DNA of 64,000 bases from an uncultured Candidatus Bathyarchaeia archaeon (lineage in GTDB: Archaea > Thermoproteota > Bathyarchaeia > 40CM-2-53-6 > RBG-13-38-9). The stretch covers positions 49,650 to 113,649 of the forward strand of contig CAYZRW010000001.1 of the NCBI GenBank assembly GCA_964480955.1, given 5' to 3'. The notes below the pieces were generated by a model, which was given only the letters and a program-made list of their open reading frames with translations, made no database searches and was not told where the DNA came from. Shown piece after piece: positions 10,149 to 61,349 of this stretch (positions are counted from its first letter, which is position 1; the number at the start of each line of letters is the position of its first letter). Made by a program: the position numbers and the translations under genes.

Positions 10149-10158
10149 CTTTTCTTCC

Positions 10159-11206: not shown

Positions 11207-11241
11207 AGAGAGCCTAACGAGGCCACTCAAGAGAAATAGAG

Positions 11242-24347: not shown

Positions 24348-24366
24348 TCCCGGCGGCCGCACCACT
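24348..24366 (+). repeat. attR core (partial copy of the tRNA-Gly 3' end, T-loop not intact)
   Basis: tcccggcggccgcaccact, preceded by the degenerate ttaag instead of ttcgaa. Confidence 0.65.
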
Positions 24367-24455
24367 CTGGCAATGAACTAGTGTTGTTTATTCCAGTTTT
24401 CAACATGTGAGCAGGGTGGAGGAGGGTCTAAGAATGTTAAAGGTTCCGGACAGGG

Positions 24456-40966: not shown

Positions 40967-40971
40967 GAATG

Positions 40972-41628: not shown

Positions 41629-41638
41629 TGGATCTCCC

Positions 41639-42769: not shown

Positions 42770-42805
42770 GTCAGTTCGCCCCTGAGTCTGGCCTCCTCTG
42801 TTAGT

Positions 42806-44044
42806 TCATTCGCCGTAGTGCGAAAGAAGAAACGGTTTCTGTTCTTCAAAGACAGAGGCTTCCTGTTCTATCAACCTGTTTGCTTCTTCATCCGTCATGT
42901 CTTTGGTCTGAAGGAGGAAGCTGTATGTCTTTCCAAGCCATAGACCCCGCAAGGAGATCAGGAGCTCGTTTCTGTTCTCTTCTTCTGTCTGTCTTGCGAA
43001 GGCGCAGGTGAACGAATAGACGGTCTTAGCCCAAACCTCAGGAGACATCTGCATCTTCTGTGAACTTGACAGCTCAGTTAGAGTTCTAAGCAGATCTTCC
43101 TCAAGCACTTTTCCGAGAAGCGCTCTTCTATCTGAGAGGGTCTCTCTGAATCCGCTGTAGAGTCTCAAAGAGTCCACTTTGACCGGTTCTGGCCCAGGAT
43201 GAGAGAATGGGTATTCTAGAAGTGGCACGGGTTTGCTTCGCAATACTTGTCTCCAGTATTTCTCGTACTCTTTCGCGCATGTGAACATCGACCCGACTAC
43301 CTGAGTGAACATCGCCGTCAGTTCAGCTCCGGGATCCTTTGCCTCGTGAACCTTTGATCCCAGCAGAGCCTCCATTATCTTGAGTCCGCTGGCAATGGCT
43401 GTGTGGGTGATGAATATGTCAATACCAAATCTTCTGACATATGTACTATTCCACAATGAGCTCTCAAGGAGCTTGGTCACTAGGGATTTTGAGAAACCAA
43501 AGTCGCCGCCGATAGGTTGACGAACTCTTAGACCGTATACCCCCCTTGTGAACGGATAACAGAGGTTATTGGTTATGGTGCCGTCAAATTTGTGGCGGAC
43601 ATAGTGTGGTGTTACGAGATCTGCGTCTCTCGATGCAGCTTCAAGCACAATCTTGCACCATTCAGGAGCAATACTTCGAAGGTCTGAGTCGAACATCGCG
43701 ACGGCTTCAACATCAAGAGAAGAGGCCGCTTCCAGGATTGCTCTAGTAGCCGACCCTTTTCCCGAAAGACCGACGTATCTAGTGAAAAAGCGGCTGACTC
43801 CATCAAGCCTGACAGCTTCAACGACTTCCCTTGTTCCATCCTGCGAACCACCGTCAGAGACTAGAATCAATGATCTGCGATCTGGAAAGTATTTAGCGAG
43901 GCCTCTTGCCACTTGGTGCAGAACATAGCCTATTGTGTGGGCGCAGTTGTAAGATGGGATCCCCACTAAGAGATCAGTCGTTCCCGCCTCAACAAGTCTC
44001 TTCGCCATTTCGGGATCCAGAGAAGCAAGATCTGAAGCGCTCAT
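42806..44044 (-). CDS. GT2-family glycosyltransferase
   Basis: GIPSYNCAHTI...VSDGGSQDGT...MFDSD is a GT-A DxD-type fold. Confidence 0.6.
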   Translation of the reverse strand: MSASDLASLDPEMAKRLVEAGTTDLLVGIPSYNCAHTIGYVLHQVARGLAKYFPDRRSLILVSDGGSQDGTREVVEAVRLDGVSRFFTRYVGLSGKGSATRAILEAASSLDVEAVAMFDSDLRSIAPEWCKIVLEAASRDADLVTPHYVRHKFDGTITNNLCYPFTRGVYGLRVRQPIGGDFGFSKSLVTKLLESSLWNSTYVRRFGIDIFITHTAIASGLKIMEALLGSKVHEAKDPGAELTAMFTQVVGSMFTCAKEYEKYWRQVLRSKPVPLLEYPFSHPGPEPVKVDSLRLYSGFRETLSDRRALLGKVLEEDLLRTLTELSSSQKMQMSPEVWAKTVYSFTCAFARQTEEENRNELLISLRGLWLGKTYSFLLQTKDMTDEEANRLIEQEASVFEEQKPFLLSHYGE

Positions 44045-44122
44045 GAGCTCAGATTAGACATTTGTTTCTTATGTAGTTTCCACAACAGGCAATATTGTCC
44101 AATCTATGGCATAGATTATTAG

Positions 44123-45358
44123 TTGACTAGCACTATTTGTAGACCTGACATGATCATGATCGATGATGTGTCGCTGGCACTGTTACTTGCAGCGGCGATA
44201 ATTGTGATCGGTTCCCTCGGGAGCTTTCTCTTTCGCAAAACAGGTGTTCCAGACATGATCTTCCTCGTGATACTCGGTATACTCTTCGGGCCGATAACAG
44301 GACTCATTCAACTGAAAGATATCGAACCTCTAGCACCTTACCTAGCAGTACTGACGCTGATAATAATCCTGCTTGATGGCGGAATGAGCCTCAGCCTACG
44401 TCAGACGATCAAGCAAAGCCCACGAGCAATTTTGCTGGCGGTTCTTGCATTCATCTTGAGCGTAGCCACTGTAGCCTTCTTTTCAAAGCTAACCTTGGGA
44501 CTGCGATTGTCGGAAGGGTTACTGCTCGGAAGTATCCTCGGCGGCAGCAGCTCGATCGTGGTAGTCTCCTTAGCTAACAGGATAGGCGTGAGTCAAGAAT
44601 GCTCGACCACTCTTATCCTAGAATCGGCGATAACCGATGTACTCTGCACGATTGCAGCTCTGACTCTGATCGGCATCATACTGTCTGGATTACCAACTAC
44701 GGAGGCCTTAGCATCTATTCTAGCTTCGAGGTTCTCAATCGGTGCGATGCTAGGCCTGATCTTCGGCCTCATCTGGATCGGTGCACTCTCTAGGATGCGG
44801 AATGAGCCATACCGGTACATGTTGACCTTGGCAGTGCTGTTTGCAGGCTACCAGGCATCTGAATCTCTTGGTGGGAGTGGAGCGCTATCAGTCCTCGCAT
44901 TTGGTATAGTACTGGGGAACGAAGGAGTGATCCTCAACCTCATCCGCAGATCGGAGATGCCGACTGTTGTCGATGAGTCGTTTAGGAAGCTGGAGGCCGA
45001 GATCGCTTTTCTCACAAAGGCATTCTTCTTTGTGTATCTTGGGCTCATAGTAAGTTTTCCAAGTGTCTTCTGGGTTGCGTACGGGCTTGTGCTATCGTTG
45101 CTCCTACTGTTGGTCCACTATATGGCTGTGGGCGTTGCGACTGTACTGAGTCCGATGCGACGGGAGAGGGGAGTCATGAGCGTAGTGTATTCGAGAGGGC
45201 TCGCTGCGGCTGTTCTTGCTGTTCTTCCTCAGCAGTTTGGTCTGGAGAACTACCAGATCTTTGTTCCAACAACTCTTATGGTCATACTGAGTACGGCACT
45301 CATCACCACGATAGGGGTCTTTCACTTCTCCCGCAAGACAAGGAATGCCAAAGCGTAA
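44123..45358 (+). CDS. Na+/H+ (cation:proton) antiporter, CPA1/NhaP type
   Basis: 411 aa, 11-12 TM helices, typical NhaP N-terminus. Confidence 0.65.
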   Translation: MTSTICRPDMIMIDDVSLALLLAAAIIVIGSLGSFLFRKTGVPDMIFLVILGILFGPITGLIQLKDIEPLAPYLAVLTLIIILLDGGMSLSLRQTIKQSPRAILLAVLAFILSVATVAFFSKLTLGLRLSEGLLLGSILGGSSSIVVVSLANRIGVSQECSTTLILESAITDVLCTIAALTLIGIILSGLPTTEALASILASRFSIGAMLGLIFGLIWIGALSRMRNEPYRYMLTLAVLFAGYQASESLGGSGALSVLAFGIVLGNEGVILNLIRRSEMPTVVDESFRKLEAEIAFLTKAFFFVYLGLIVSFPSVFWVAYGLVLSLLLLLVHYMAVGVATVLSPMRRERGVMSVVYSRGLAAAVLAVLPQQFGLENYQIFVPTTLMVILSTALITTIGVFHFSRKTRNAKA

Positions 45359-45453
45359 GTTCTCAAACGCCAGAAGAACTGACCATCCGGCTTCAAAAAG
45401 ATGCTCTTGATTCCAATACGTGATTCCTCAAACGACATCCTCGGGTCTATCTC

Positions 45454-46272
45454 TTATGCAACGTACCCGGGACTTCTCCTCGAGTTCTTGTATTCTATCT
45501 CAAGCTTTTGGACGAGTTCTGCGAATGAACGGTCCTGCTTCATCAATGAGTCCAGCTGCTTCTGGAATAGGTTCGCTTCCATCTGGAGTTCCTTCATGTC
45601 GACTTCAATATTCAAAAGGGCTTTGGCTTTGCTCAGGAGCTGATGGGCGGTTCTTGGATCAACATCGTTTACGTACTCTGGAGCGTGACCCCAAATACTG
45701 ACAGCTGGAATTCCTCTCCTTTCGCTCTCCCTGAGAACCAAGCTGTGAATGCTGCTTGGACCACTATATTCTGCGGGCTCGACACCTTTCCGTCTCATCT
45801 CTGTCATAAGTTTAGGGGTACTCGTTACTCCAGAGATCAACGGTTCGACAGTGTGAGGGATACGATCAACCAGTCCTCCAAGCAGACAGATGAGATTGAC
45901 CCTCCTAGGATCTAGTGCCTGGAACAATGATTCAACATATGTTCCCCAGTTAGTATGCGGTTCCACCCCTATCAGTATCAATAAGCCATGAGCAGACGAT
46001 TTGATCTTTGCAGCATACAGCTCATTGATTGGAGGCGTATAGTCTTTCACGAGTCCCTTCTTGATGTTAACTAGGGGACGTTCGATCACGAAGTCATAGA
46101 AGGGTAATGGGTCTATCTCGCCTATCTTCTCTGCCTTCAACTTATCCCGCAGATACTCTGCCGCGAATGTAGCCACTCTCTTAGCGTCCGGCCATCCAGC
46201 GAACGCCGCAACTACGTTGACAGTCTTGAAATCCATCTTCTTTAAGAGGCGCAGGTATTTCTTCTCGTCCAT
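45454..46272 (-). CDS. PAC2-family (proteasome assembly chaperone-like) protein
   Basis: 272 aa. VVAAFAGWPDAKRVATFAAEYL and GVEPHTNW resemble archaeal PAC2-domain proteins. Confidence 0.45.
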   Translation of the reverse strand: MDEKKYLRLLKKMDFKTVNVVAAFAGWPDAKRVATFAAEYLRDKLKAEKIGEIDPLPFYDFVIERPLVNIKKGLVKDYTPPINELYAAKIKSSAHGLLILIGVEPHTNWGTYVESLFQALDPRRVNLICLLGGLVDRIPHTVEPLISGVTSTPKLMTEMRRKGVEPAEYSGPSSIHSLVLRESERRGIPAVSIWGHAPEYVNDVDPRTAHQLLSKAKALLNIEVDMKELQMEANLFQKQLDSLMKQDRSFAELVQKLEIEYKNSRRSPGYVA

Positions 46273-46466
46273 GGGCTATCTGCAGTCCTACTTGTAATTG
46301 GTCTTAATAGCTCTCACTTCTAGGTCACAAATCAATATGGCTAGCTGAACGCGCACTTGCGAACGTCAACTTGGCGCATCTTACACCAGTGACGGCATAA
46401 GGTACGTGCAATAGCTTTCATAGCAGACAAGATAAAGCTGAAGACAGTGTCTTCAGAGGTGTCGAC

Positions 46467-46685
46467 ATGACGTGCTATTTCAGGCATCTTCGAGGCGTCT
46501 TCCAGAAGGCTGGAATAGAAGTCACCAAAGAAAACCGGCAAGACATCGACAGAGCAATTCACGACATTGTGAGCGTCAAATACAAGACCTGTCCGGCTGC
46601 TTGGAAAGAAGTAAAGAAGAGAATCACAGAGGACGAGGATGCTTTCGCTTCTGAGCTGAGGAAGACACTTAACAAGACGAAATAG
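46467..46685 (+). CDS. hypothetical small protein
   Basis: 72-aa ORF, basic. No motifs. Confidence 0.25.
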   Translation: MTCYFRHLRGVFQKAGIEVTKENRQDIDRAIHDIVSVKYKTCPAAWKEVKKRITEDEDAFASELRKTLNKTK

Positions 46686-46787
46686 ATGTTAGAGAACTGT
46701 TTACGTGAGCGGAGCACTCGCACCGCAAGGGATAGCCTCGACGATAAAGTCTAAAACATGTGGAGCTGACCTGTACAGCTGATCACG

Positions 46788-47372
46788 ATGAGGTCACAGG
46801 CACTCATAGGATTAGCCACTAGAAGGAAGACGACGAGAAGATTCGCGAAGACTCCTATTAACATGGAGGATGTTCTCTACTGCATCAGGGTTGCTATCCA
46901 GGCGCCGTCAGGAGCAAACAAACAGCCATGGCGGCTCCTAATTATTGATGATCCTAGCTTAAGGAGGAAGGCGCGTGCAGCATGCGAAGACCAGGAGAAG
47001 CTCTTTCACGCCAGTGCAGATCTAAGCCTGCAAAAATGGTTTCAATCGAAAAACATCACTTGGGACAAGCCATTTCTCACTGATGCGCCTATGCTTCTGG
47101 CAGTGTTCTCTAATCAAGACATGATCTACGCTACAGAGAGCACATGGTTAGCGATAGGCTACATCATTCTTGCTCTGGAGGAGAAAGGACTTGCTACAGT
47201 AGTGTACACGCCTCCATATCCGAAGGATCTGCGAAGCTTGTTTAATGCCCCACCAGAGTACAGGCTGGAAACAATATTGCCGATAGGTTACTCAGCAGAT
47301 ACGAAACCGAAGGAGGAGCGGCGGCCTCTCGAATCATTCATCTTCAGGAACTCTTGGGACAGGAGTACGTGA
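46788..47372 (+). CDS. nitroreductase family protein
   Basis: RRFAKTPI...APSGANKQPWRLLII is the nitroreductase FMN-binding signature. Confidence 0.65.
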   Translation: MRSQALIGLATRRKTTRRFAKTPINMEDVLYCIRVAIQAPSGANKQPWRLLIIDDPSLRRKARAACEDQEKLFHASADLSLQKWFQSKNITWDKPFLTDAPMLLAVFSNQDMIYATESTWLAIGYIILALEEKGLATVVYTPPYPKDLRSLFNAPPEYRLETILPIGYSADTKPKEERRPLESFIFRNSWDRST

Positions 47373-47485
47373 ACTCGGGAGTTCTAATCCGTCAGACGAA
47401 GGTTGCGTCTCGACCCCAGAACTTCCACGACGCGACTAAAAGTTCTGAATCCGCTTGGGCGAGACGGTCACATCAAGGTTTGTCA

Positions 47486-47845
47486 TCAGTTATTCTCAAC
47501 TTCTCGGTGTTTCTTTTCCGAGTGTTCGATGTCTCGTCCCAAGAAGTATCCTAGGGCAGTTCTGAGACCTATTATTGCTGCCAACTGTCCTATGCTGGTC
47601 CATGACGGTGCGACCGCTGTCTTGAGGATGTCTGCTGCTATCAGGAACTCTAGTCCGAGAGTGAGGGATCTGCCCATCCTCAATCTTATCGTCTCTTGAT
47701 ATGTTGAGGAGCCCGAGGTCTTCACAAGATCTTTGAAGTACGAATAGACTGTTCTAATTACTCCCAGAGAGATCACCAGGACGCCGCATGCCTCGGCAAT
47801 AATGCTCAAGTAGTCTATCAGGATTGTCAGGTAGGATTCCATCAA
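47486..47845 (-). CDS. small membrane protein (DUF-type)
   Basis: 119 aa, three TM helices. Confidence 0.3.
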   Translation of the reverse strand: MMESYLTILIDYLSIIAEACGVLVISLGVIRTVYSYFKDLVKTSGSSTYQETIRLRMGRSLTLGLEFLIAADILKTAVAPSWTSIGQLAAIIGLRTALGYFLGRDIEHSEKKHREVENN

Positions 47846-47974
47846 CTATTCCTCTGAGCGCATTACGTGTTTATTGAGATGACATGCCAAAAAAGCCTGG
47901 TATAATGGTTGTCTGAGAAAGGTGGCTTCTGCAATACTCTGGCCTTGCATTCCCCGTCATGGGTGAACTGAAGA

Positions 47975-48694
47975 ATGGAAGCAGAGGATAGTGTTGCTCG
48001 GGAGAGTCGGAAAAAGAAGCTTAGGATCACACTGCTCGTGCGAATACCTCTGTTTGTAGTTCTGCAGGTTTTGATCTTATTTGTCTCAGCAGGGCGCTTC
48101 GATATGCCACGCATGTGGCTCTATGTGGCCATGATCTGTGTGTACATTCCTGTGAGTATACTAGTTCTTTACAAGCTTAACCAGGAGCTAATTTACCAAA
48201 GGGCACACGGTTCAAGACACGGAACCAAATCCTGGGATAAAGTCTTGATGCCTGTGATAGTCATTCTGCCGTACTTCCAGCTTGCGGTAATCGGGTTAGA
48301 TGTCAGGCGATTTCGATGGTCAACTCTCAGTGCCGATTTTGCAGTAATCGGTGTACTGCTGTATGTCTTTGCGTCAGTCCTCATCAACTGGGGAATGATA
48401 ACAAATCGGTACTTTGAGCCGACGGTTCGGATCCAAAAAGAGAGAAACCATCAGGCTATAACTGGTGGACCGTACAAGATAATCAGACACCCAGGCTATC
48501 TCGCAGGAATACTCTTCCCGGTATCAATTACCATCATCATAGGCTCCGTCTTCGGCTTGATACCGGCGGGGATCAATGCCGTACTGATAACGGTCCGTAC
48601 GGCACTGGAGAACAGAACCTTGCAGAAGGAATTAAGCGGCTATTCCGAATACTCCAAGAAAGTTCGGTATCGTCTTCTTCCCGGAGTCTGGTAA
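47975..48694 (+). CDS. isoprenylcysteine carboxyl methyltransferase / PEMT-family membrane methyltransferase
   Basis: IRHPGYLAGIL and a C-terminal E...NR motif. Polytopic. Confidence 0.6.
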   Translation: MEAEDSVARESRKKKLRITLLVRIPLFVVLQVLILFVSAGRFDMPRMWLYVAMICVYIPVSILVLYKLNQELIYQRAHGSRHGTKSWDKVLMPVIVILPYFQLAVIGLDVRRFRWSTLSADFAVIGVLLYVFASVLINWGMITNRYFEPTVRIQKERNHQAITGGPYKIIRHPGYLAGILFPVSITIIIGSVFGLIPAGINAVLITVRTALENRTLQKELSGYSEYSKKVRYRLLPGVW

Positions 48695-48951
48695 CTACCA
48701 AATCTCAGGTTTGAAGGCACTCGTGATCTTCTCAACGATGTGCGGTGGGACGTCAGCTAGGTTGTGCTGGTTCCTAACGTGTTCTCTTGCTTGTTCCAGA
48801 GCTTCCTCGATGATGTTACCTCTATTTCAAAAAAGCATCCATCGATGGGGCACTTTAGAGTAGGGCCCAGCGCGCGCCACAATCTCATTACGGTTGATTG
48901 ACTACTTAATCTTATTGCAGGTTAGCGTGTGACGCCAGAAGCTAGGTGCGT

Positions 48952-49482
48952 TTAGAGTGGATGCTGCTGTGTTTTAGTATCAGATTCCTGCCATTTTGGA
49001 CAATTCTCAAAAAGCCTCTCAATTCCTAGACCGGGGAGCATTCGACCATATATGTTGTGGAAGAGTTCGAGGCCCTCTCTCTTTGGTATCGTTCCAGACC
49101 TTGAGGCGCCAATAATTACAGACGGAATCCCTGCAGTGGTGATCTCTAGGATCCCAGCCACGGTGTCGACCTCTCTATCGTTTGTAAGAACAGGCTGAGC
49201 TTTGTGTTGGAGTGCTAAAGCTAGACAAGCTTCCTCATGTACAGATAGTCTGATCCCGCTCTTTGACTCGATCTTATCTACTTGCATAAGATAATTCATC
49301 TCGGGATCGAAGAACTCCATCCAACCTTCAGTTAATGCTTCATCTAAAGCGTTGGTTGGTATCTCCTCTATGATTGATGTTGGTATCAGTACCTTTTGGT
49401 AGGCGTCCTTGAGGAGCCTGAGGGCATTATGCTTTTGCAGTAGAATCAGAACATGTGGATCTGGTATTGCGGTCATCATCAC
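48952..49482 (-). CDS. DUF3368-like PIN-fold putative toxin
   Basis: Overlaps the upstream UPF0175-like gene by ~56 nt. LLKDAYQKVLIPTSIIEEI is DUF3368-like. Confidence 0.4.
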   Translation of the reverse strand: MMMTAIPDPHVLILLQKHNALRLLKDAYQKVLIPTSIIEEIPTNALDEALTEGWMEFFDPEMNYLMQVDKIESKSGIRLSVHEEACLALALQHKAQPVLTNDREVDTVAGILEITTAGIPSVIIGASRSGTIPKREGLELFHNIYGRMLPGLGIERLFENCPKWQESDTKTQQHPL

Positions 49483-49777
49483 TCAGCTCCTTGATCAGAG
49501 ATTCTAGGTTGTAACGCGGTGTCAATCCTCTTTTGCGCATTTCCTCTAGTAACTCTGCTAGGCTAATCTCAGCAAGCTCCGCAGCTCGACCTACTGACAT
49601 GAAACCCCTTTCGTATTGCTCCAGAGCAAAACGAATGTTGAGTTCTCTGAACCCTAGTTTCACTGCTTCACTGAGGAGTATTGACCGCTTTATTCTCTTC
49701 CTGCGTGTCAGTTCGTTTATGCTTCTTAACAGTCCGTCAGGGATTGTAACGGAGACGCGGGTCTTCAACTCGATCAC
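49427..49777 (-). CDS. UPF0175-like antitoxin (RHH/HTH)
   Basis: 116 aa: SVTIPDGLLRSINELTRRK ... SVGRAAELAEISLAELLEEMRKRGL. Confidence 0.45.
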   Translation of the reverse strand: MIELKTRVSVTIPDGLLRSINELTRRKRIKRSILLSEAVKLGFRELNIRFALEQYERGFMSVGRAAELAEISLAELLEEMRKRGLTPRYNLESLIKELSDDDRNTRSTCSDSTAKA

Positions 49778-49861
49778 TTCTTACGAAACAGCCATTTAGT
49801 CTGTTAGTCCCGTTCTACGACTCCTGCAGTAAAGGTGAACCATTGTTCCTGCTGTCATTAT

Positions 49862-50767
49862 TCAGAGGTCAACAGGTTGGGTCAGCTTAGTCTCTCCCTT
49901 TAAGGAGGATTCTATCGTGCTAACTATCTTCATGAATGCTTTGGCTGCAGGGCTGTCTGGATATTCGACAATGAATGGTTTACCTCTGTCTGAAGCCTCG
50001 CAGACTCTTGGATCTAGGGGGATGCTCCCCATGAAGGGGACATCGAGGTCTTCGGATATCTTCTTGCCCCCGCCAACATTGAAGATCTGTGACTCTGAGC
50101 CGCACTTTGGGCAGATGAAGCCGCTCATGTTCTCTACAATGCCGATTATTGGGATCTTCAATTGGCGTGCGAACGTTACAGCTTTCTTGACCACTATCTG
50201 TGAGACCTCTGACGGAATTGTGACTATTATCACGCCGTCCATTTCTGGAAGAAGTTGCATGACGCTCAGAGGCTCATCGCCTGTGCCGGGAGGAAGATCG
50301 ATGAGGAGGAAATCTAGTGGTCCCCACATCACCTCCGACAGGAACTGTCTTATGGCAGACATTTTGAGTGGGCCGCGCCATATGACTGGAGTATCGTCGT
50401 TTGGAAGCAGGAAATCCATGGAAACAACTTCCACTCCGAAAGGTCCAGATACGGGAAACGCTCCGATGGGTCCAGCTTTGAGTTGTTGACCTCTTATGCC
50501 AAGCATCTTTGGAACAGATGGCCCGTGAATGTCAGCGTCCAAGATGCCCACCTTGTTGCGGTGACCGTGCAGGGCTAGGGCGATGGCTAGGTTAACGGTG
50601 GTAAGGCTCTTTCCAACTCCTCCTTTGCCACTGATGATTGCGATCTTGTGTTTCACCTTGGCCATTCTTTCTCTGAGTAACTGCTCCTGCCTATCGACGG
50701 ATTGTTTTGTGCTGACGCCGTGTCCTGATTTCGCGTGGGAGGGGCATCTTTCTAACTCAGGTTGCAT
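49862..50767 (-). CDS. apbC: Mrp/NBP35/ApbC-family Fe-S cluster carrier ATPase
   Basis: KIAIISGKGGVGKSLTTVNLAIALA deviant Walker A, plus CPKCG. Confidence 0.8.
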   Translation of the reverse strand: MQPELERCPSHAKSGHGVSTKQSVDRQEQLLRERMAKVKHKIAIISGKGGVGKSLTTVNLAIALALHGHRNKVGILDADIHGPSVPKMLGIRGQQLKAGPIGAFPVSGPFGVEVVSMDFLLPNDDTPVIWRGPLKMSAIRQFLSEVMWGPLDFLLIDLPPGTGDEPLSVMQLLPEMDGVIIVTIPSEVSQIVVKKAVTFARQLKIPIIGIVENMSGFICPKCGSESQIFNVGGGKKISEDLDVPFMGSIPLDPRVCEASDRGKPFIVEYPDSPAAKAFMKIVSTIESSLKGETKLTQPVDL

Positions 50768-50876
50768 AAGCGAATTCCTCGATCTTAAACTGATGATGGC
50801 ACTTCGGTTAATAATGGAAATGCATTTAAACCTTTTCGGTTAATGTTCTTCGTATGCAAACCGAAAAAGCGTTGGT

Positions 50877-51230
50877 GTGAAGGTATTGATTGTTCTCAAT
50901 TGTTCGGATGTTGAAGCTAAGGAAGCTGGCGAGGGAGCTGTGAACGTCAGAATGAGATGGCTTATCTCAAAGGATATGGGGGCGGAGAACTTCGCTATGA
51001 GACACATAGAAATTGATCCACAGGGTCACAGTCCACTTCACAGCCATCCATGGGAGCATGAGATCTTCATCTTAGAAGGAGAAGGAGTCGTGACCGACGG
51101 AAAAGAGGAGAAGAAAGTCAAAGAGGGTGACTTCATCTTCATCCCGCCCAATGGGACGCATCAGACGAAGAACGCAAGTCAGAAGACTATGGAACTCCTT
51201 TGCATGATCCCATACAAGGAAACACGTTGA
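50877..51230 (+). CDS. cupin-domain protein
   Basis: HSHPWEHEIFILEG...IPPNGTHQ are cupin motifs 1 and 2. Confidence 0.6.
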   Translation: MKVLIVLNCSDVEAKEAGEGAVNVRMRWLISKDMGAENFAMRHIEIDPQGHSPLHSHPWEHEIFILEGEGVVTDGKEEKKVKEGDFIFIPPNGTHQTKNASQKTMELLCMIPYKETR

Positions 51231-51244
51231 TTGGCTCTAATTGA

Positions 51245-51925
51245 ATGACTAGTGACAAGAGGGATGATTTGATGACTATGGAGGTTGAGACAAAGGAAAT
51301 GCTAGTTCTGGGAAAAGAAGTGCCCAACTTCGAAGCCTCAACCACATCTGGAACTGTAAGGCTGTCGGACTACAAAGGCAAATGGGTCGTGCTTTTCTCA
51401 CACCCGGCAGACTTCACACCAGTCTGCACCACAGAATTCGTTGCCTTCGCCTAGAAGCATGACGAGTTCAAGAGAAGAGGTGTGCAGTTGCTTGGCCTAA
51501 GTATAGATAGTGTTTACTCACACATTGGTTGGATGAAAAGAATCGAGGAGAAGTTTGGTGTGCAGATACCTTTCCCAATAATAGCTGATGCCGATATGAA
51601 AGTGGCGAAGCTCTTTGGTATGATTCATGAAGGCGAAAGTAGCACTGAAGCCGTTAGAGCAGTCCTCATAATGAACCCGGAACAGAAGTTGCGGGCAATA
51701 CTCCAATATTCACTCTCGAACGGCAGGAATATCGATGAGATCATAAGGCTGATCGATGCGCTCCAGACCTCTACAAAACACGGCGTAGCCACTCCTGCAA
51801 ATTGGAGACTTGGGGACGCGGTGATCGTTCCTCCACCGTTAACAAAGGAGGAGGCTGACAAAAGGCTCGAACAGAAAGGAATGGAGTGCCGAGACTGGTT
51901 CTTCTGCACTAAGAAGGTTTCCTGA
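51245..51925 (+). pseudogene. peroxiredoxin (Prx6/1-Cys-like, AhpC/TSA family) with an in-frame TAG
   Basis: [19 protein letters not shown][TAG]KHDEFKRRGVQLLGLSIDSVYSHIGW...FPIIAD...VATPANW is continuous in one frame. The TAG at 51452-51454 replaces a normally K/R position. Confidence 0.65.
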
Positions 51926-52082
51926 ACCTACGTATGCCAGTCTTCGCTCTGCTCTTCCCGCCTTTTCTCTTTCATTGTGTAGATGATGGTGCTCTCATAT
52001 ACCTGAATCTTGAGTGAAGGCGCGATAACCTTAAAATGTCGAGGTTACAGACTTTAACCAGAGTTCTTCGATGGGTTAAAGG

Positions 52083-52655
52083 ATGTCAAAGAAGCTACTT
52101 GACGATATCGATAAGGTGATTGTGTCCGAGCTGCAGAAAGACGGACGAGTTGCCTTATCTAGTATTGCCAAGAAAACAGGAGTGTCACATGTTGCGATTC
52201 ACAAGCGACTGGAGAGGTTGATCGAGAAGGGAGTGATCAAAGTATCTGCTGGCTTGAATACAGAAGCCCTAGATTCGAAAATAGCAGCGATAATCGTTGA
52301 GGTTGAAAACTCGCGGAGACTGGGCGAGCTCATTGAGTTATTCCAGGATTGCCCTCGAACTGTTCTGCTGTCTCCCCTTAGTGCATCTAACCTGTTAACG
52401 GTGGTGGTGGGCGAGGACTTTTCCACGCTGGAGAGCGTCATAGGGGTCTGTTCATTACGTGTCCAGAAAGGAGTCAGGCGATCAGAGGTTCATATAGGCA
52501 AGCTGCCGAACTACCCCAAGTTCTTACCAATAAGAATAGCTGCTGAGCGGAAAGAATGCTCTCCCTGCGGCGTGGTCTGCAGTGAATGCGACAGTTTCAA
52601 GAACAGACAATGCTTGGGATGCCCAGCAACCAAGTTCTACAATGGGCCTCTCTAA
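52083..52655 (+). CDS. Lrp/AsnC-family regulator with a C-terminal Cys-rich (metal-binding?) extension
   Basis: HTH (DKVIVSELQKDGRVALSSIAKKTGVSHVAIHKRLERL) plus a RAM domain, then CSPCGVVCSECDSFKNRQCLGCP. Confidence 0.55.
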   Translation: MSKKLLDDIDKVIVSELQKDGRVALSSIAKKTGVSHVAIHKRLERLIEKGVIKVSAGLNTEALDSKIAAIIVEVENSRRLGELIELFQDCPRTVLLSPLSASNLLTVVVGEDFSTLESVIGVCSLRVQKGVRRSEVHIGKLPNYPKFLPIRIAAERKECSPCGVVCSECDSFKNRQCLGCPATKFYNGPL

Positions 52656-52666
52656 GTCAATGAGCA

Positions 52667-53638
52667 GTGAATAGCTTCCAAGATGGCGTTTGCTCACGCC
52701 ACAACTTGCCCTCAAAGGGGTCGCACATATTGTCAGCGGGAACAGTGAAAGTCGTAAACATATCAAAGGCACCCGTTCCGGCAGTAGAGACCCTGAAGCT
52801 GACAGTTCTTGTCGAGGACACTGCCAGTGTGAGCATACCTAATCTCACAGCTAGGCACGGCCTATCTTTACTTGCTACGATGAAGTCAGCTGGTGCTTAC
52901 TCCCAAATCCTGATGGATGCCGGTCCGCCGCCAGATATCGCTCTACAGAACGCGCGCAAACTAGAGGTTGACTTGAATAAGACGAATGTGATAGTCATCA
53001 GCCATGGTCACTACGATCATGTCGGTGGACTAATCGAGACACTAAAACACATAGACCATTCTGTTCCAGTAGTGGCGCATCCAAAGGCTTTTGATCAGAA
53101 GTTCATCTACAGACCCCACCTCAAGTTTGTCGGCCCCGAATTCGATCGGTCATCGTTAGGGAATGTGGGAGGAATGTTGCTCCTTTCTCGCAGCCCAGTT
53201 ACTTTACTCAGTGGAGTACTCACAAGTGGAGAGATACCTAGAAAGACGCACTTTGAACAGACCAGAGGCTTCTATGCTGTAGCTAATGATCGATTCGTGG
53301 AAGACCCTATTCTTGACGATCAGGCCCTTTTCATTAACCTCAAAGGCAGGGGGCTTGTGGTCATAGTGGGTTGCGCACACGCTGGTATCATAAATACACT
53401 TAGACACGCCCGGAGGATCGTTGGTACAAGTGACATCCACGCTATAGTCGGTGGTCTCCACTTGGCCAAGGCTGATGAAACCCGAATCTATGCTGTCATG
53501 AAAGAGCTTGCAAGGATCAACCCTCGAATGATATATCCATGCCACTGCACAGGTTCGACCGCGATCAATCAACTACTCGGTTATTTTGGAGACAGATGCA
53601 GACCTGTCCACACAGGCGATACTATTGAGTTCCAATAA
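52667..53638 (+). CDS. MBL-fold metallo-hydrolase
   Basis: ISHGHYDHVGG plus downstream His/Asp ligands. Confidence 0.6.
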   Translation: MNSFQDGVCSRHNLPSKGSHILSAGTVKVVNISKAPVPAVETLKLTVLVEDTASVSIPNLTARHGLSLLATMKSAGAYSQILMDAGPPPDIALQNARKLEVDLNKTNVIVISHGHYDHVGGLIETLKHIDHSVPVVAHPKAFDQKFIYRPHLKFVGPEFDRSSLGNVGGMLLLSRSPVTLLSGVLTSGEIPRKTHFEQTRGFYAVANDRFVEDPILDDQALFINLKGRGLVVIVGCAHAGIINTLRHARRIVGTSDIHAIVGGLHLAKADETRIYAVMKELARINPRMIYPCHCTGSTAINQLLGYFGDRCRPVHTGDTIEFQ

Positions 53639-53694
53639 TGTCAGCGGTCTAGCTTGATCTAAGCTACAGTCGCACTGAGCGTCCGAGAGTAAGC

Positions 53695-54588
53695 CTATTC
53701 TTGCTTATGAGTCAAACCAATATGTATGGTTACGGAGTCTAGCGTCTTGACAGAATTCTTAACCCTGTTCTCCACCGTATCTGCTATCATATGTGCCGCT
53801 TCCACTGTAGTCCCTTTGTCGACCTCGATATGTGCTTCCGCAAACATAAACGGCCCAGACTTCCTAATCTTCAGGGCATGAATCCCTACTACTCCGGGGG
53901 TCTTCTCCATTAGGTCTCTGATCCTTGTCCTAATCTCAGGTTCGACCGAGATGTCCATAAGGGAGAAAACGGAATCTTTTCCAAACCTGAAAGCCGACCA
54001 TAGAATGAAGAGGCCTATGATGAACCCTGCTAGCGCCTCAGCCCATAAGATGTTGAAATAAGTGAAGGCGACGCCGCTGCAGACTAGAACTGCATTAAGA
54101 ACGTCGGTCATTGAATGTCTACTCTCAACTATCAGCGCTTGTGAATTTGTCTCTCGCCCAACCCTGTCCTTGTATCGAGCCAGCGAAAAGGAAACCAAGC
54201 CTGAGCCAATAGCAACAACGATGACGAGTATTCTGAATGAAATGACAGAAGGCGAGAACAACTTCTCCATTGAATCCTGCAAGATACCGATTCCCGTGAA
54301 CAGTATGATTATAGAAACAATCAGTGCTGAGATAGACTCTGCCTTGTAGAAGCCGTATGGGAATCTTTCTGTGGGTCTCTTAAGCGATATTCTTAGACCT
54401 GCCCAGACGAGAACCGAGCCTGCGATATCTGAAACAGTATGTACCGTATCAGCGAACAGGGCTATGCTCCCAGCCAAGAGGCTGACACCTCCCTCTAGAA
54501 TAGACAGAGCTACCAAGACAAGGCTGGATCTCTTCGAGGCTGCGATTCCTTTTTGAAGCATTGATGCTCTAGAATCAGCAGCACTCAT
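53695..54588 (-). CDS. cation diffusion facilitator (CDF) family metal efflux transporter
   Basis: Six TM helices, HSMTD and ADTVHTVSD metal-site motifs, C-terminal cytoplasmic domain. Confidence 0.7.
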   Translation of the reverse strand: MSAADSRASMLQKGIAASKRSSLVLVALSILEGGVSLLAGSIALFADTVHTVSDIAGSVLVWAGLRISLKRPTERFPYGFYKAESISALIVSIIILFTGIGILQDSMEKLFSPSVISFRILVIVVAIGSGLVSFSLARYKDRVGRETNSQALIVESRHSMTDVLNAVLVCSGVAFTYFNILWAEALAGFIIGLFILWSAFRFGKDSVFSLMDISVEPEIRTRIRDLMEKTPGVVGIHALKIRKSGPFMFAEAHIEVDKGTTVEAAHMIADTVENRVKNSVKTLDSVTIHIGLTHKQE

Positions 54589-54658
54589 TGTCTGTCCAGA
54601 CCTTTCTCGCCGTCGAATTCATGCTGCAGGAGCGAAACACTTCCCAGATCATGCGTGG

Positions 54659-55555
54659 TCAGATTTCTACATCGAATAATACCCTTATGAGGAATCCAAC
54701 ACCAAATGACAAAGCTGCTACTCCCAGACTGATTGCCGCCATCTCAGAAAACCTCTTCGTGAACGGAATATCTTTTGCAACAGATATGTAGAAGGTGAAC
54801 ACAGAGATCGCTACGATCGCGTTCAAGATCGTGCAACCCAGGCAATAGTATAGATCCGACAGGAGTAGATACGGAGAAATTAGAAAAAGGACCGTGAGAA
54901 CATATGCAGCCCCCGTGTAGATGGATGCTTTTGCAGGGTTCTTACCTTCAGATTCCGATTTGGTTGAGAGGTATTCAGAGGATGCCATTGACAACGATGC
55001 AGCGATTCCAGTGATCGAGCCGGCCATGGCTATCAACCGTGCATTTTGCAGAGCAAGGGTAAGTCCTGCCAGCGCGCCGGTGAGCTCCACAAGAGCATCA
55101 TTCAAGCCTAGAACTATTGAACCGACATATCTCAGTCGCTCCTCATCAATCAAGTCTATGAGCTTTCTTTCATGTTCCTCTTCATCTCTGAGTACGTCTT
55201 TAGCACCCGGTATTGATTCGAGAATCCTTCGGTACGCTTTCTCGGCTCGATCTTCACCGCGCTCCATCAATTTCATGCCAAATGTTGTTCCGAATACTCT
55301 CGAGATGATGTAGTACTTCCATATCGCAAGTCTGGCTGGCTGTACGTCGCGATCCGTATATTGCCTCCAAAAATCATGATGTTTCAACTCATCTCTTGCG
55401 ATGCTTCTTAGGACATCTTTGTTGTGAGAATCTTTCGTCGATTGAGCCAGTTTCTCATAGATGATGTGTTCTGTGAGCTCATTCCTCTGAGCGATCAACA
55501 ACCGTTTCCTTGTTTCTTCGTCCAGCATCACACCTTCCATCTCCTTGGCAGGCAA
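54659..55555 (-). CDS. VIT1/CCC1-family iron transporter with an N-terminal ferritin/rubrerythrin-like domain
   Basis: N-terminal E..H diiron-like helices (EHIIYEKLA...DELKHHDFW...EEEHERKL), then five TM helices of VIT1 type. Confidence 0.6.
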   Translation of the reverse strand: MPAKEMEGVMLDEETRKRLLIAQRNELTEHIIYEKLAQSTKDSHNKDVLRSIARDELKHHDFWRQYTDRDVQPARLAIWKYYIISRVFGTTFGMKLMERGEDRAEKAYRRILESIPGAKDVLRDEEEHERKLIDLIDEERLRYVGSIVLGLNDALVELTGALAGLTLALQNARLIAMAGSITGIAASLSMASSEYLSTKSESEGKNPAKASIYTGAAYVLTVLFLISPYLLLSDLYYCLGCTILNAIVAISVFTFYISVAKDIPFTKRFSEMAAISLGVAALSFGVGFLIRVLFDVEI

Positions 55556-55646
55556 CTTGTTACAGCTCCCACTGGATCATGTGTAGTATTGTTCTGGATA
55601 CAGCTAAGAATGTCTCTTTCGTTATGTGGGAGATCCTAATGTCTTC

Positions 55647-56408
55647 TCACTCCTTCCTCTGGTTCATTACGTGAAAGCGGTTACTTAGGAAGAGGAACAA
55701 GAGTGCATAAAGCAAGAGTACGCCCACGTTGAGTGTAGGCTCAAAGAAGTGCTCATTACCTAGTCCTGCTCTCAGCAACTCAATACTGTGGGTCAAAGGT
55801 GACAACATGGATACAGTCTGAGCGAGTGAAGGCAGGCTTCTGACTGGGATGAAGACACCACTTATGAACAGCAGCGGAATACGCACTAGGTTTAAGGGCA
55901 TCATGATTTGACCTGGACCCTGACCGGGAAGGAGAGCGAACGTAATTCCCATGGCTGCGAAGCCTAGGGCTGATAGGATCATGCCCGCCGCCAGGCAGGG
56001 GAGGTTCGACACCTGACATTTAAGGAGAACTAGGCCTGCGACCACGGGGATTGCAGATACTAGTATACCATAAAGAAATCCTGCCAGCATCTTGCCTATT
56101 AGAACTGTGCTAAGTGAAACTGGAGCTGTGAGAAATCGCTCAAAGGTTCGCATCCTTCTTTCTAAGGGGATAGTGATCGGCCCTATAGATGATGAGGCGA
56201 AGAGTAGCGTTTGTGCTACCAACACTGGAATGGCCCGGTCAGCCGGCATATTCCTGCCTATGACGAACGAGAGAAACATGGAGACGGGGAATAGGATTCC
56301 GAACATAAGGGAAGGTGGTTTAGCGTAGTAGATCCTTGCATCCTTCTCCGCAATAGCCCATGCAACCCTGATCTCTCGCGTGAGACGTTCATTTCCTATC
56401 GTGGTCAT
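55647..56408 (-). CDS. ABC-2 type transporter permease
   Basis: Six TM helices. It overlaps the ATPase gene by 4 nt. Confidence 0.6.
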   Translation of the reverse strand: MTTIGNERLTREIRVAWAIAEKDARIYYAKPPSLMFGILFPVSMFLSFVIGRNMPADRAIPVLVAQTLLFASSSIGPITIPLERRMRTFERFLTAPVSLSTVLIGKMLAGFLYGILVSAIPVVAGLVLLKCQVSNLPCLAAGMILSALGFAAMGITFALLPGQGPGQIMMPLNLVRIPLLFISGVFIPVRSLPSLAQTVSMLSPLTHSIELLRAGLGNEHFFEPTLNVGVLLLYALLFLFLSNRFHVMNQRKE

Positions 56409-57364
56409 TTTCGATCAGACTCCTCCTGCTCTGTGTCTCCCCTTACGTGAAGTCTTATGCCGGTAAGCTTGACGAAAACGTCCTCTAGACTCGGCCCAAG
56501 AGTATTGATGGTAGTGATTTTGAGGCCTCTGGCGGAAGCGAGGTTCCAAACATCAGAGAGGACACTTGAAGGATCTCTCGTGTATAATCGATATCTGTCC
56601 CCATACTTCGAGACCTCAGCGACCATTGAGAACTTCCCAAGATCTGGAGCCAGGTCCGTTTCTCTGTCTTGAAAGGATACCTCTACCGAATGTAGCGTCT
56701 CGATATTCTGACTGAGATTCTGCGGAGTGTCAATTGCAACCAGTTTGCCTCTATTTATTATGGCTACCCTGTCACACATTCTGTTCGCCTCATCCATGTT
56801 GTGAGTGGTGAGGAAAACGGTCAGTCCACCCTGATTCATCCTTCTGATCAGTTCTCTTATCATCAAGACGCTTTGAACATCAAGTCCACTTGTAGGCTCA
56901 TCTAAGAATAGGATGGACGACCTGTTCATTAGTGCCATTGCTATGCACAGGCGTCTCTTCATACCTTTTGAGAAACCTTCTACTGTCTCTCGGCGGCAGT
57001 TGGGAAGGCCGAACATCTCCAGAAGTTCCTTTGCTCTGTTTTCCCTCTTTGTCGTGGGTATGTCGTACAGTCTCCCTGTGAACACTAGGTTATCCCAAGC
57101 GGACAGTTCAGTGTAGACGTTAGATATGTCGGGAACGATCCCCATCAGCTCTTTCGCTTTAACCGCATGCCTTTGTATGTCAAAACCCATTACTTCCGCA
57201 GTTCCCTCACTGGGCTTCGATATCCCTGTGAGCATACGAACTGTGGTCGATTTTCCAGCTCCATTGGGACCAAGGAAACCAAAGATCTCTCCCTTCTCCA
57301 CCTCGAAGTCTACATGGTCGACCGCCAGCAGACTTCCATAATACTTAGTGAGATCAGTCGTCAC
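56405..57364 (-). CDS. ABC transporter ATP-binding protein
   Basis: GPNGAGKST, LSGGMKRRL-like (SKGMKRRL), ILFLDEPT. Confidence 0.8.
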   Translation of the reverse strand: MTTDLTKYYGSLLAVDHVDFEVEKGEIFGFLGPNGAGKSTTVRMLTGISKPSEGTAEVMGFDIQRHAVKAKELMGIVPDISNVYTELSAWDNLVFTGRLYDIPTTKRENRAKELLEMFGLPNCRRETVEGFSKGMKRRLCIAMALMNRSSILFLDEPTSGLDVQSVLMIRELIRRMNQGGLTVFLTTHNMDEANRMCDRVAIINRGKLVAIDTPQNLSQNIETLHSVEVSFQDRETDLAPDLGKFSMVAEVSKYGDRYRLYTRDPSSVLSDVWNLASARGLKITTINTLGPSLEDVFVKLTGIRLHVRGDTEQEESDRK

Positions 57365-57535
57365 TATGGCCTGCTCTAACGGCGTTACCTCCTTCGATTG
57401 TCTTATCGCAAAATCCTAGCTAATTCTCTAGAAGCTTAGAATGTGGACTCTGACTGAGTAGAACGCAAAACCGATGGGAGTCTCGAGCAAAGAGAACCAA
57501 TCACCATGGACAACCATCCTTGCATACGTGAGAGA

Positions 57536-58114
57536 CTAAGGTTCCTTCCTTCTCGACAGAGGTTTGATCTCTATGAGGCTGGAAGACCAACTAGCCCAGT
57601 AGTCTTGATCTGGACCATGAGAGTACTGTGGGTCAACTGCACATATTCTATATCCGTGGTCGATACGGTTTATGACCACGTAGTGGCCAAGTTCCTCTCT
57701 TTTGCGTTCATATGCGTCGCACACCTTTGGAATCAGAATGATCGGTGGTATCCCTCTCTGCAGGCAATTAAAGATGAGGTGTCTGTCTGTCTTTATTCTC
57801 TTCACCCTGCCACCAAGTTTGAAGAAGGTCTTTGTGAGGCGTGGCTTTCTGCCGTAGACGACAACCCTAAACCCCCTTCTCAGGGCAAGTGTACCCAATG
57901 TACCCTCGCTAAGACCTCTTCTTGAATTCTGCACCAGCCTCCTGATGCGTTTGTTTTCCAGAAAGTCCGTCTGGGTGTCCGTGGCCCCGTAGTATCTTAA
58001 CACCATTTCAAGAGCCGCGAGGCCGCACCCACATATGTTCTTCTGTCTGACGTGATCTATCGGGAGACTTATCGGCTGACATAGCACCGGTCTGTTACTC
58101 ATGTACCAGACCAA
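57536..58114 (-). CDS. peptidase C39-like (papain-fold) domain protein
   Basis: CGCGLAALEMVLRYYG (catalytic Cys region) and a later GHYVVI His region. Confidence 0.5.
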   Translation of the reverse strand: MVWYMSNRPVLCQPISLPIDHVRQKNICGCGLAALEMVLRYYGATDTQTDFLENKRIRRLVQNSRRGLSEGTLGTLALRRGFRVVVYGRKPRLTKTFFKLGGRVKRIKTDRHLIFNCLQRGIPPIILIPKVCDAYERKREELGHYVVINRIDHGYRICAVDPQYSHGPDQDYWASWSSSLIEIKPLSRRKEP

Positions 58115-58324
58115 CTAGTAAAATTCTGTGCGCATGAACAAAATAAGCCTGTCGCTCCCGCTATGTCTAATGATGTAGTTGTGCACATACTGCTCGCAGG
58201 AATACTGGTCTTTGGTATTATGTGATAGTTCAAGATCGGCCGACGACAGTTAAGCCCACACTGAGACTAGCGCAACTAAAGATTTATTTCGTGCAATGAC
58301 ACAGAATAACAGCGGAGATTTGAT

Positions 58325-59422
58325 ATGGCTAAGAGTGTTAAAGGCGTGAGTGATGGCGGACTCAATTTGGGGCCTGACAAGGAAATAAACCGAGACCAAT
58401 GGTTAAGGGATGTTTTTCCAGAGTGGGGCACCGTACTCAACAAGGAGATAGAGTCAACCAATCCAGAGCCTAACACCTTCATACTCTGGTGGCTTGGAGG
58501 AGCATCATGGTGGTTCAAGAGCGCCGGCGGCACAAACCTATGCATCGATCAGTACAGCGGCTCCGGAGGATGCCTGGACTATAACGAGCTCTCCAAGTAC
58601 TCCGGCGTAGTAAGGATGACCGGAGCACAGAAGATGTGCTGGATCAGATGTGTGCCACATGTTCTGGATCCTTGGCTGATCAAGGAGTGTGACGCATACG
58701 TCTCAACCCACATCCACACCGACCACGCTGACTTCTACACCATCAAGCCTCTACTGCAGAACACGGACTGCAAGTTCATTGGCCCTCCGAGATGCAAGGA
58801 GATATTCGAAAGATGGAAAGTCCCAGCTGACAGAGTCGAAGTAGTGAAGCCTGGCTCAGTAGTTAAGATAAAGGACACCGAGATACATGCGGTCGAATCC
58901 TTTGACAGGACAGTCCTGATAACAGAACAGGCGGACTTCAAGAAGACGACTATGGAAGAGTTTGCTAAGCTGATGGATGAGAAAGCGGTAAACTATATAC
59001 TGAAAACACCTGCCGGCAGCGTATATGATGCAGGAGACTCCCACTACTCAAACATGTTCTTCAAACACGGCAAGCAACACAACATAGATGTGGCCCTGAT
59101 AACCTTTGGGGACAACCCAGACGGCATGACAGACAAGATGACCCCCTATGACGCATACCGCGCGGGAAAGTGTCTTAATGCTAAGGTTGTCATTCCGCAG
59201 CATTACGAGAACTGGGGCATTGTTGAGGGAGATCCAACTGATTTGGAAATGATAGCTAACAAGAAGTTTTCACCATTCAGAGTATGCATAATGAGGCCTG
59301 GCACCAGGTATGTGTGGCCCACCGACAAAGACAAGCCGCGGATCTACTATCTACAGCAAACAGAAGTCAGCAAAGACTTCAGAACAGACTTGGTAGATCT
59401 GCCATTTCCAGCATACCTATAG
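58325..59422 (+). CDS. ulaG: UlaG-like MBL-fold lactonase (L-ascorbate-6-phosphate lactonase family)
   Basis: Collinear similarity to E. coli UlaG over the full length: FPEWG, GTNLCIDQ, THIHTDH, VVKPGSVVKIKDTEIHAVESFDRT, AVNYILKTPAGSVYDAGDSHYSN, IDVALITFGDNPDGMTDKMT, LNAKVVIPQHYE, DLPFPAYL. Confidence 0.7.
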   Translation: MAKSVKGVSDGGLNLGPDKEINRDQWLRDVFPEWGTVLNKEIESTNPEPNTFILWWLGGASWWFKSAGGTNLCIDQYSGSGGCLDYNELSKYSGVVRMTGAQKMCWIRCVPHVLDPWLIKECDAYVSTHIHTDHADFYTIKPLLQNTDCKFIGPPRCKEIFERWKVPADRVEVVKPGSVVKIKDTEIHAVESFDRTVLITEQADFKKTTMEEFAKLMDEKAVNYILKTPAGSVYDAGDSHYSNMFFKHGKQHNIDVALITFGDNPDGMTDKMTPYDAYRAGKCLNAKVVIPQHYENWGIVEGDPTDLEMIANKKFSPFRVCIMRPGTRYVWPTDKDKPRIYYLQQTEVSKDFRTDLVDLPFPAYL

Positions 59423-59488
59423 AGAGTCAACCCGACTCTCTTTTCATCTCTTTTTTCTTAGTTTTCATCTGGTGTAAGTCATGATTGC

Positions 59489-59806
59489 GTGAAAACAATG
59501 GATCCAGATGAGTTTCTCGTCCTAACTCGAAAAGGCTTGGAGTTTGTGAAGAGATGGTTTTTTGATAGGGGGAGGGTTCCTTCTGAACTGACACGGGAGT
59601 ATCAGCTGCTACTCCACATTTGTTGTTTTGAAGGTCTCATGAAGTATGAAATACTAAAAGAAATAGGATACAATGACAGTACAATAGCAAAAGCATTGAG
59701 AGAAAAGCTTGTGACTATATCCAAAGATGGTTCAGAACTTGAAGAGGGGGTCAAGGCTGAGATAGTGAAGACTGTCGAGAAACCTCACGATTCAGTATAT
59801 GCATAA
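59489..59806 (+). CDS. hypothetical small protein, possible wHTH
   Basis: 105 aa. No strong motifs. Confidence 0.3.
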   Translation: MKTMDPDEFLVLTRKGLEFVKRWFFDRGRVPSELTREYQLLLHICCFEGLMKYEILKEIGYNDSTIAKALREKLVTISKDGSELEEGVKAEIVKTVEKPHDSVYA

Positions 59807-59832
59807 TCCATCGAGAGACAGAGGTCTGGCTA

Positions 59833-60525
59833 ATGCTGATTCTGTGGATACTGACATTCAGTGTTCTAGGCAGCGTCGGAGCTATTATTGCGGCCGCTGC
59901 TTTTCTTCTGCTTGAGACTAAAGTGCAGAAAACTTTAATTTCTTGCTTAATCTCCTATGCTACGGGAACGCTCCTAACTGTGGCCTTGCTAGGACTAATA
60001 TCCCAGTCTTTGCAGCATATAGCTCCAGTTCCGACCCTATTCACCGTATTGGTCGGAATTATCCTCTTCTTCTCCCTTGAGAAACTGTTGATTTGGCGCC
60101 ACTGTCATGACGGCAAGTGTGAGGTCCATGGCGTCGCGGGGCCAATGATCCTCGTTGGAGACGTCTTTCATAATCTTACAGATGGTGTTGTTGTAGCTGC
60201 AAGTTTCCTAGCCTCCGTATCTATTGGCGTAGCTGCAGGCCTTTCAGTAATAGTACACGAAGTCTCTCAAGAAGTAGGTGATTTTGCTACACTTCTATAT
60301 GGAGGCTATTCCCGAAGAAAGGCCCTAACGCTAAACACTCTATCTAGCTTAAGTACAATCCCCGGAGCAATTCTGGCCTACTATGCTCTAGAAGTCATTC
60401 GCTCAGCTACGCCCTATGTTATGGCAATTTCAGCATCAAGCTTCCTTTACATTGCCTGGCCGATCTATCGCCAGAACTTCATCGCGAAGCAAGACCCTGG
60501 CATGCAATTCAGCAATTCCTTCTGA
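59833..60525 (+). CDS. ZIP-family metal (Zn/Fe) transporter, ZupT-like
   Basis: HNLTDGVVVAASF and HEVSQEVGDFATLL are ZIP signature helices IV and V. Confidence 0.7.
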   Translation: MLILWILTFSVLGSVGAIIAAAAFLLLETKVQKTLISCLISYATGTLLTVALLGLISQSLQHIAPVPTLFTVLVGIILFFSLEKLLIWRHCHDGKCEVHGVAGPMILVGDVFHNLTDGVVVAASFLASVSIGVAAGLSVIVHEVSQEVGDFATLLYGGYSRRKALTLNTLSSLSTIPGAILAYYALEVIRSATPYVMAISASSFLYIAWPIYRQNFIAKQDPGMQFSNSF

Positions 60526-60665
60526 TCTTGGAGGAGTTGGAACTGTTGTTCTTTTCCTTCAATTTCATCCATGAGTTGGTCAAAACTCAACTTATGCACT
60601 CTATATTCTCAAAGACGAGACAAGGTATTCTTGACAAATGATGTTGCTTCTAATTGTGTTAGAAA

Positions 60666-61340: not shown

Positions 61341-61349
61341 CGAGACACG

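Follow-up and report, generated by a model that had tools for sequence, protein, structure and literature searches.

A peroxiredoxin gene of an uncultured Bathyarchaeia archaeon interrupted by an in-frame amber codon, probably a recent nonsense pseudogene

The 64-kb stretch of Bathyarchaeia DNA analysed here (hereafter the window) carries, at 51245-51925, two consecutive reading frames that are best explained as a single, recently inactivated nonsense pseudogene of an archaeal Prx6-type ('3-Cys') peroxiredoxin, a reading to which we attach a probability of about 0.9. A single C>T change at 51452 converted a glutamine codon (CAG) into an amber codon (TAG), so that translation would stop after about 60-69 residues. 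The truncated product would keep the peroxidatic cysteine but would be without most of the thioredoxin fold, the catalytic arginine and the C-terminal domain that forms the dimer or decamer, and for that reason should be inactive. This is plain pseudogenisation. In practice, a single peroxiredoxin pseudogene should be annotated in place of the two ORFs, and nothing in the window raises the suspicion of an altered genetic code.

A peroxiredoxin frame divided by a single codon

An ORF finder returned two same-frame ORFs on the + strand, the first of 69 aa (51245..51454, ending in TAG) and the second of 147 aa (51482..51925, opening on GTG and ending in TGA). The in-frame TAG occupies 51452-51454 in the frame of the ORF starting at 51245, and reading through it yields a product of 217-226 aa. 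This read-through translation matches Pfam AhpC-TSA (PF00578; E 3e-35, 121 bits against a cut-off of 26) over residues 14-142, a match that spans the stop at residue 61 of the read-through product, as well as Pfam 1-cysPrx_C (PF10417; E 5e-15, 55.6 bits against a cut-off of 21.1), and it is 65-70% identical to peroxiredoxins of 213-221 aa over 95-100% of its own length. Those homologues for which a source is named come mostly from Bathyarchaeia or Bathyarchaeota. Judged from these alignments, a chance juxtaposition of two ORFs at 51245-51925 is ruled out. The ORF list and the spanning Pfam match agree with the original prediction, which held that the single TAG at 51452-51454 cuts a full-length peroxiredoxin into ORFs of 69 and 147 aa.

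The N-terminal fragment of the pseudogene (51245..51451, +), as delimited by the ORF list and the homologue alignment, comprises 69 codons from the ATG at 51245; the same alignment suggests that the true start of the peroxiredoxin is the ATG at 51272 (MTMEVE...). This fragment carries the PxxxTxxC active-site motif, aligned to homologues and to PDB 5OVQ, including the codon for the peroxidatic Cys (TGC, 51425..51427, +), which lies in a PVCTTE segment aligned to PVCTTE of 5OVQ, and in the gene calls of other assemblies the fragment is itself matched by Pfam AhpC-TSA/Redoxin. Beyond the premature stop (TAG, 51452..51454, +), the rest of the peroxiredoxin frame (51455..51925, +) continues for 156 codons to a TGA stop at 51923-51925. 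It encodes the remaining thioredoxin fold, the catalytic Arg (AGA, 51656-51658, +, in an AVRAV motif aligned to the same motif of 5OVQ), the 1-cysPrx_C domain and the C-terminal CxDWxxC pair, whose Cys codons (TGC at 51887-51889 and 51905-51907, +) likewise align to 5OVQ. Gene calls in other assemblies start this C-terminal piece at TTG 51488 (P0078), GTG 51482 (P0122) or ATG 51533 (P0121).

The solved structure closest to the read-through product is PDB 5OVQ (E 4e-78, residues 10-216), followed by the Aeropyrum pernix thioredoxin peroxidase (2CV4, 1X0R), a Pyrococcus horikoshii Prx (3W6G) and human PRDX6 (1PRX). As in these structures of the Prx6 subfamily ('1-Cys'/'3-Cys'), the AhpC-TSA domain is followed by 1-cysPrx_C, and the PxxxTxxC motif, the catalytic Arg in xVRAx and the CxDWxxC pair are all present. 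Unlike them, the window has no single open frame of the ~210-220 codons needed for a whole Prx6 protein, owing to the TAG at 51452-51454, which breaks the frame after residue 60/69 (counted from the ATG at 51272 or 51245), and it encodes Leu and Ser at two positions where Phe and Pro are near-invariant in the family. The locus is a Prx6-subfamily member by descent, as a pseudogene and not as a working enzyme gene.

Origin of the stop and constraint on the interrupted frame

The sense codon from which the stop derives is preserved in a sister contig, L003 (JGI 3300002465), which is collinear with window 39831-53808 at 87-93% nucleotide identity (~93% at the peroxiredoxin) and encodes an uninterrupted peroxiredoxin (P0123; 233 aa as called; L003 10001-10702). 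In a codon-by-codon comparison, the L003 codon opposite the window TAG is CAG (Gln), and the stop is thus a single C>T transition at 51452. The original prediction had placed the stop at a conserved K/R position, which is not borne out: among 119 homologues the interrupted column holds Q in 56, K in 41, E in 15, N in three, and R and D in two each, and is a variable polar position whose ancestral state in this lineage was Gln. A sense codon one mutation away in a close orthologue, together with a residue in the column in 119/119 homologues, is a pattern expected of a nonsense pseudogene. The locus resembles ordinary nonsense pseudogenes of prokaryotes and MAGs both in this one-base change from the sense codon of the closest relative, fixed in a clonal lineage, and in the other small lesions nearby (a transglutaminase TAA, a Usp-GT fusion and an IS4/IS5-type transposase, detailed below), with no notable difference from them; the lesion is young, and the rest of the peroxiredoxin frame is therefore nearly intact.

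Elsewhere in the collinear region, window 47560-48831 (~1.27 kb), which includes part of a DUF1622 ORF (47486-47845) and an ICMT/PEMT-type methyltransferase (47975-48694), has no alignment to L003, in which a 71-aa ORF is called at the corresponding place. This stretch is probably an indel between the window and L003 lineages.

The aligned 217 residues contain 11 differences between the window and L003 proteins, and the 119 homologues allow six of them (alignment positions 7, 10, 61, 132, 147 and 180) to be polarised. Each of these six changes arose on the window branch, leaving none for the L003 branch (one-sided binomial p about 0.016). Three derived substitutions on the window branch affect conserved motifs on the + strand. 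The first, F>L at 51665..51667 (CTC versus TTC in L003), lies in the AVRAVF motif three residues past the catalytic Arg, where 118 of the 119 homologues have Phe. The second, P>S at 51710..51712 (TCA versus CCG in L003), alters the YPLSNGRN (YPxxxGRN) motif at a column that is Pro in every homologue (119/119), and the third, P>L at 51809..51811 (CTT versus CCT in L003), falls in ANWRPGD, where the homologues have Pro in 111 cases and Leu in seven. Pairwise dN/dS between the peroxiredoxin and its L003 counterpart is 0.21, and that of intact neighbouring genes is 0.10-0.32. The value carries no strong signature of neutral drift, as expected if the stop is recent, and the case for relaxed selection rests on few substitutions, which modestly favour a relaxation of constraint on the branch that gained the stop.

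In addition, ten columns that show at least 95% conservation across the 119 nearest homologues have an atypical residue in both the window peroxiredoxin and the L003 copy (D>N in the IDP motif, Y>Q, H>S and P>E are examples), with the replacement residue differing between the two at two of these columns. The peroxiredoxin of this small clade had therefore diverged unusually far by the time the stop arose.

An interrupted frame may nonetheless be leaky, or split yet useful, if near-cognate read-through of UAG by tRNA-Gln (CUG) supplies some full-length protein or if a 145-aa C-terminal piece is made from TTG 51488. Bacteria and yeast are known to read through amber codons by near-cognate decoding at about 0.1-1%, and decoding by tRNA-Gln would in principle restore the ancestral Gln to a frame that still encodes the active-site Cys, Thr and Arg as well as the C-terminal Cys pair. 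In addition, a Shine-Dalgarno-like GAGGTG (51476-51481) lies 7 nt upstream of TTG 51488, and two gene callers start the protein there. We nevertheless consider continued function of this kind improbable: the C-terminal piece would be without the peroxidatic Cys and the N-terminal piece without the Arg and the greater part of the fold, the F>L and P>S changes at near-invariant positions suggest that the frame is no longer protected, and the TAG allele is clonal and bears no mark of a programmed site.

Amber codons as terminators and other broken genes in the window

Recoding of UAG is less probable still. It would require that a pyrrolysine (Pyl) system or another amber suppressor be encoded elsewhere in the genome and that a full-length, working peroxiredoxin be made. 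PylRS is encoded by some Bathyarchaeota (PMC9630628), so taxonomy alone leaves recoding unsettled, and the locus shares with Pyl-recoded genes of Methanosarcinales, Methanomassiliicoccales, Sifarchaeia and some Bathyarchaeota an in-frame UAG in a conserved archaeal gene. The interrupted column, moreover, tolerates Q, K and E, so that an inserted residue would probably be harmless, and a dN/dS of 0.21 is not a neutral value. If recoding were true, UAG would be spreading into an ordinary housekeeping gene of an archaeon that still uses it as a frequent terminator.

The use of TAG elsewhere in the window argues against this. In a greedy ORF map of the window, the 62 ORFs of at least 100 aa terminate in TGA (23), TAG (22; 35%) or TAA (17). 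Domain boundaries agree with TAG as the true end of genes: for example, the Pfam TrkA_C match of TrkA (33580-34227) ends two residues before its TAG and the ZT_dimer match of a cation-efflux protein ends seven residues before its own, while the next in-frame stop past many TAG terminators is TAG again. TAG is thus a common genuine terminator in the window. In Pyl-using archaea, by comparison, fewer than 6% of CDS end in UAG, with the exception of Sifarchaeia at 21% (PMC9723677), an exception by which frequent TAG stops are not strictly exclusive of Pyl. The Pyl sites known so far are in methylamine methyltransferases, at conserved positions of the active site (PMC9723677), whereas the window UAG occupies a variable surface position (Q/K/E/N/R/D) of a peroxiredoxin and is not conserved in the orthologue of the closest relative, L003, which has CAG. 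Neither avoidance of UAG as a terminator nor its conservation at a functionally required position was therefore observed, and the two extra substitutions at near-invariant columns on the same branch also speak against a protein maintained by recoding.

ARAGORN and Rfam found no tRNA with a CUA anticodon within the 64-kb window, and no pyl gene was seen in it. The original prediction had proposed a search for suppressor tRNAs; run within the window, it returned calls for Leu(CAG) and Gly(UCC). The latter is a 140-nt tRNA at 12578-12717 (+), identified by Rfam and missed by ARAGORN with and without its intron option, that is interrupted by 43 nt in the D-loop (12593-12635) and again, after position 37, by ~22 nt (about 12661-12682). 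Splicing out both inserts by hand gives a clean cloverleaf with the anticodon loop CUUCCAA, that is, a tRNA-Gly(UCC) with two introns, and its UCC anticodon led to its rejection as a suppressor. The tRNA-Leu(CAG) at 23084-23165 (+) was called by ARAGORN only, with no Rfam match there even at E up to 1, and lies inside a 229-aa winged-helix ORF (22722-23411) within a putative integrated element; either a false call or a degenerate tRNA borne by that element would explain it.

The 3' end of the tRNA-Gly gene (TCCCGGCGGCCGCAC...) at 12704-12733 is repeated 11.6 kb downstream at 24348-24377 (26/30 bases). Between the two copies, at about 12.7-24.4 kb, are a tyrosine integrase (13587-15005; Pfam Phage_integrase) and ORFs most of which could not be annotated. 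Such an arrangement is consistent with a virus or plasmid integrated at the tRNA gene and bounded by att sites. At 9615-11739, four consecutive ORFs of 159-195 aa on the - strand (9615-10202, 10159-10656, 10643-11122 and 11242-11739) look like tandem paralogues from their translations, two of which begin LSEDRT... and all four of which end in a winged-helix-like ...ERVGKG.Y.LT..G.

Four other in-frame TAG junctions in the window, at 16381, 18703, 20280 and 38787, were considered as read-through sites and rejected, as no Pfam domain spans any of them. DUF4064 begins right past the TAG at 20280 and an ATG directly follows that at 16381, and the junctions are gene boundaries, with separate neighbouring genes sharing a frame by chance; several TGA-separated gene pairs share a frame likewise.

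Where a second conserved gene is broken, the codon is not TAG. The transglutaminase-like gene at 24456-25100 (+) has a TAA at 24816-24818 inside its Pfam Transglut_core match, which spans the stop, in keeping with the original prediction, which counted one TAA among two conserved genes with in-frame stops. At this point 76/76 aligned homologues have WPH-[Y/I]-[F/L]-[A/V]-E; the window has WPH-*-VE and is thus one residue shorter, and the DNA at the stop is CAC TAA GTC, suggesting that a 3-bp deletion from something like CAC TAT TTA GTC gave rise to the TAA. The 120-aa N-terminal fragment of this gene (P0201) occurs in five JGI contigs. A third decayed locus is probably represented by the 208-aa ORF at 38163-38789 (+), in which the first ~115 positions of Pfam Usp are followed by the C-terminal part of Glycos_transf_1 (GT4), with a junction near ...ENADLIL/IPSREEGFGLP..., a stretch that we take to resemble both families. 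This ORF looks like a deletion or recombination fusion of two genes. An IS4/IS5-type transposase is also present at 61370-62344. The two broken genes differ in mutational route and in stop codon, and with the Usp/GT fusion and the transposase they form a pattern of ordinary decay and not of codon reassignment.

Recurrence of the stop and loss of the enzyme

The reproducibility of the stop was judged from assembled contigs, six of which (L001, L002 and L004-L007) were fetched. All six come from metagenome assemblies of JGI or ENA, match the window exactly or almost exactly over 4.8-20.4 kb and have TAG at the same codon. Five are 100% identical to the window, namely L001 (ENA ERZ27245470), L002 (ENA ERZ27247973), L004 (JGI 3300013127), L005 (JGI 3300010319) and L007 (JGI 3300025136), while L006 (JGI 3300022556) has one SNP over the first 16.8 kb (41488-58324) and is then divergent. 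The C-terminal fragment was also recovered as a called protein (P0078, P0121 and P0122; at least 15 + 7 + 3 contigs from NCBI, Logan, ENA and JGI), as was the 69-aa N-terminal fragment (P0124; seven JGI contigs). Some of the matching assemblies may share reads, since L005 and L007 have identical extents, and several represent distinct samples.

No full-length protein with the window allele was present in the protein collection, where the sole full-length member of the 90% cluster is the intact L003 protein. A 51-base pattern round the stop, with N at the mutated base, matches the window and L001-L003 as a control and had no match in the genome or metagenome contig collections, from which the lineage is absent. 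Similarly, among the matches listed for the intact sister protein against genome contigs, there were only peroxiredoxins of 50-64% identity, from many phyla.

Recurrence of the TAG allele in independently assembled contigs excludes a mistake confined to one assembly. The broader possibility of a sequencing or assembly artefact, with a sense codon in the real genome, can safely be set aside: single-base errors do occur in metagenome assemblies and some matching contigs may reuse the same reads (L005/L007), but at least four JGI sample ids, two ENA assemblies and NCBI and Logan records share the identical TAG, L006, a distinguishable strain with different downstream genes, has it as well, and no recorded contig combines the window haplotype with a sense codon. 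The original prediction had weighed decay and sequencing error above recoding, which it held to be much less likely, and the recurrence of the stop, the CAG in L003, the TAG terminators and the TAA elsewhere in the window favour decay.

The TAG allele appears to be fixed in a near-clonal population sampled across several metagenomes, and on that basis the peroxiredoxin would be dispensable in the habitat. The stop cannot be dated from divergence within the population, because the TAG contigs differ by one SNP and one recombinant gene. A search of the window with tblastn found no second peroxiredoxin copy inside it. If the frame is indeed inactive, a near-clonal Bathyarchaeia population has lost a peroxide-detoxifying enzyme that its sister lineage keeps, a loss that would fit a niche of lasting anoxia or a genome that encodes a redundant antioxidant at another locus.

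Past the stretch that is identical but for the one SNP, where L006 16838-20438 faces window 58325-62344, L006 differs from the window by 86 mismatches (60 synonymous, 26 not), which are confined to a metallo-beta-lactamase-fold gene (58325-59422), and it is a separate strain. Further downstream, L006 encodes an HflX-type GTPase and a trypsin/PDZ protease, and the window counterpart (to 62344) encodes a small ORF, a ZIP transporter, a methyltransferase and the IS4/IS5-type DDE transposase. The interval 58325-62344 thus seems to mark a recombination or insertion boundary between the window and L006.
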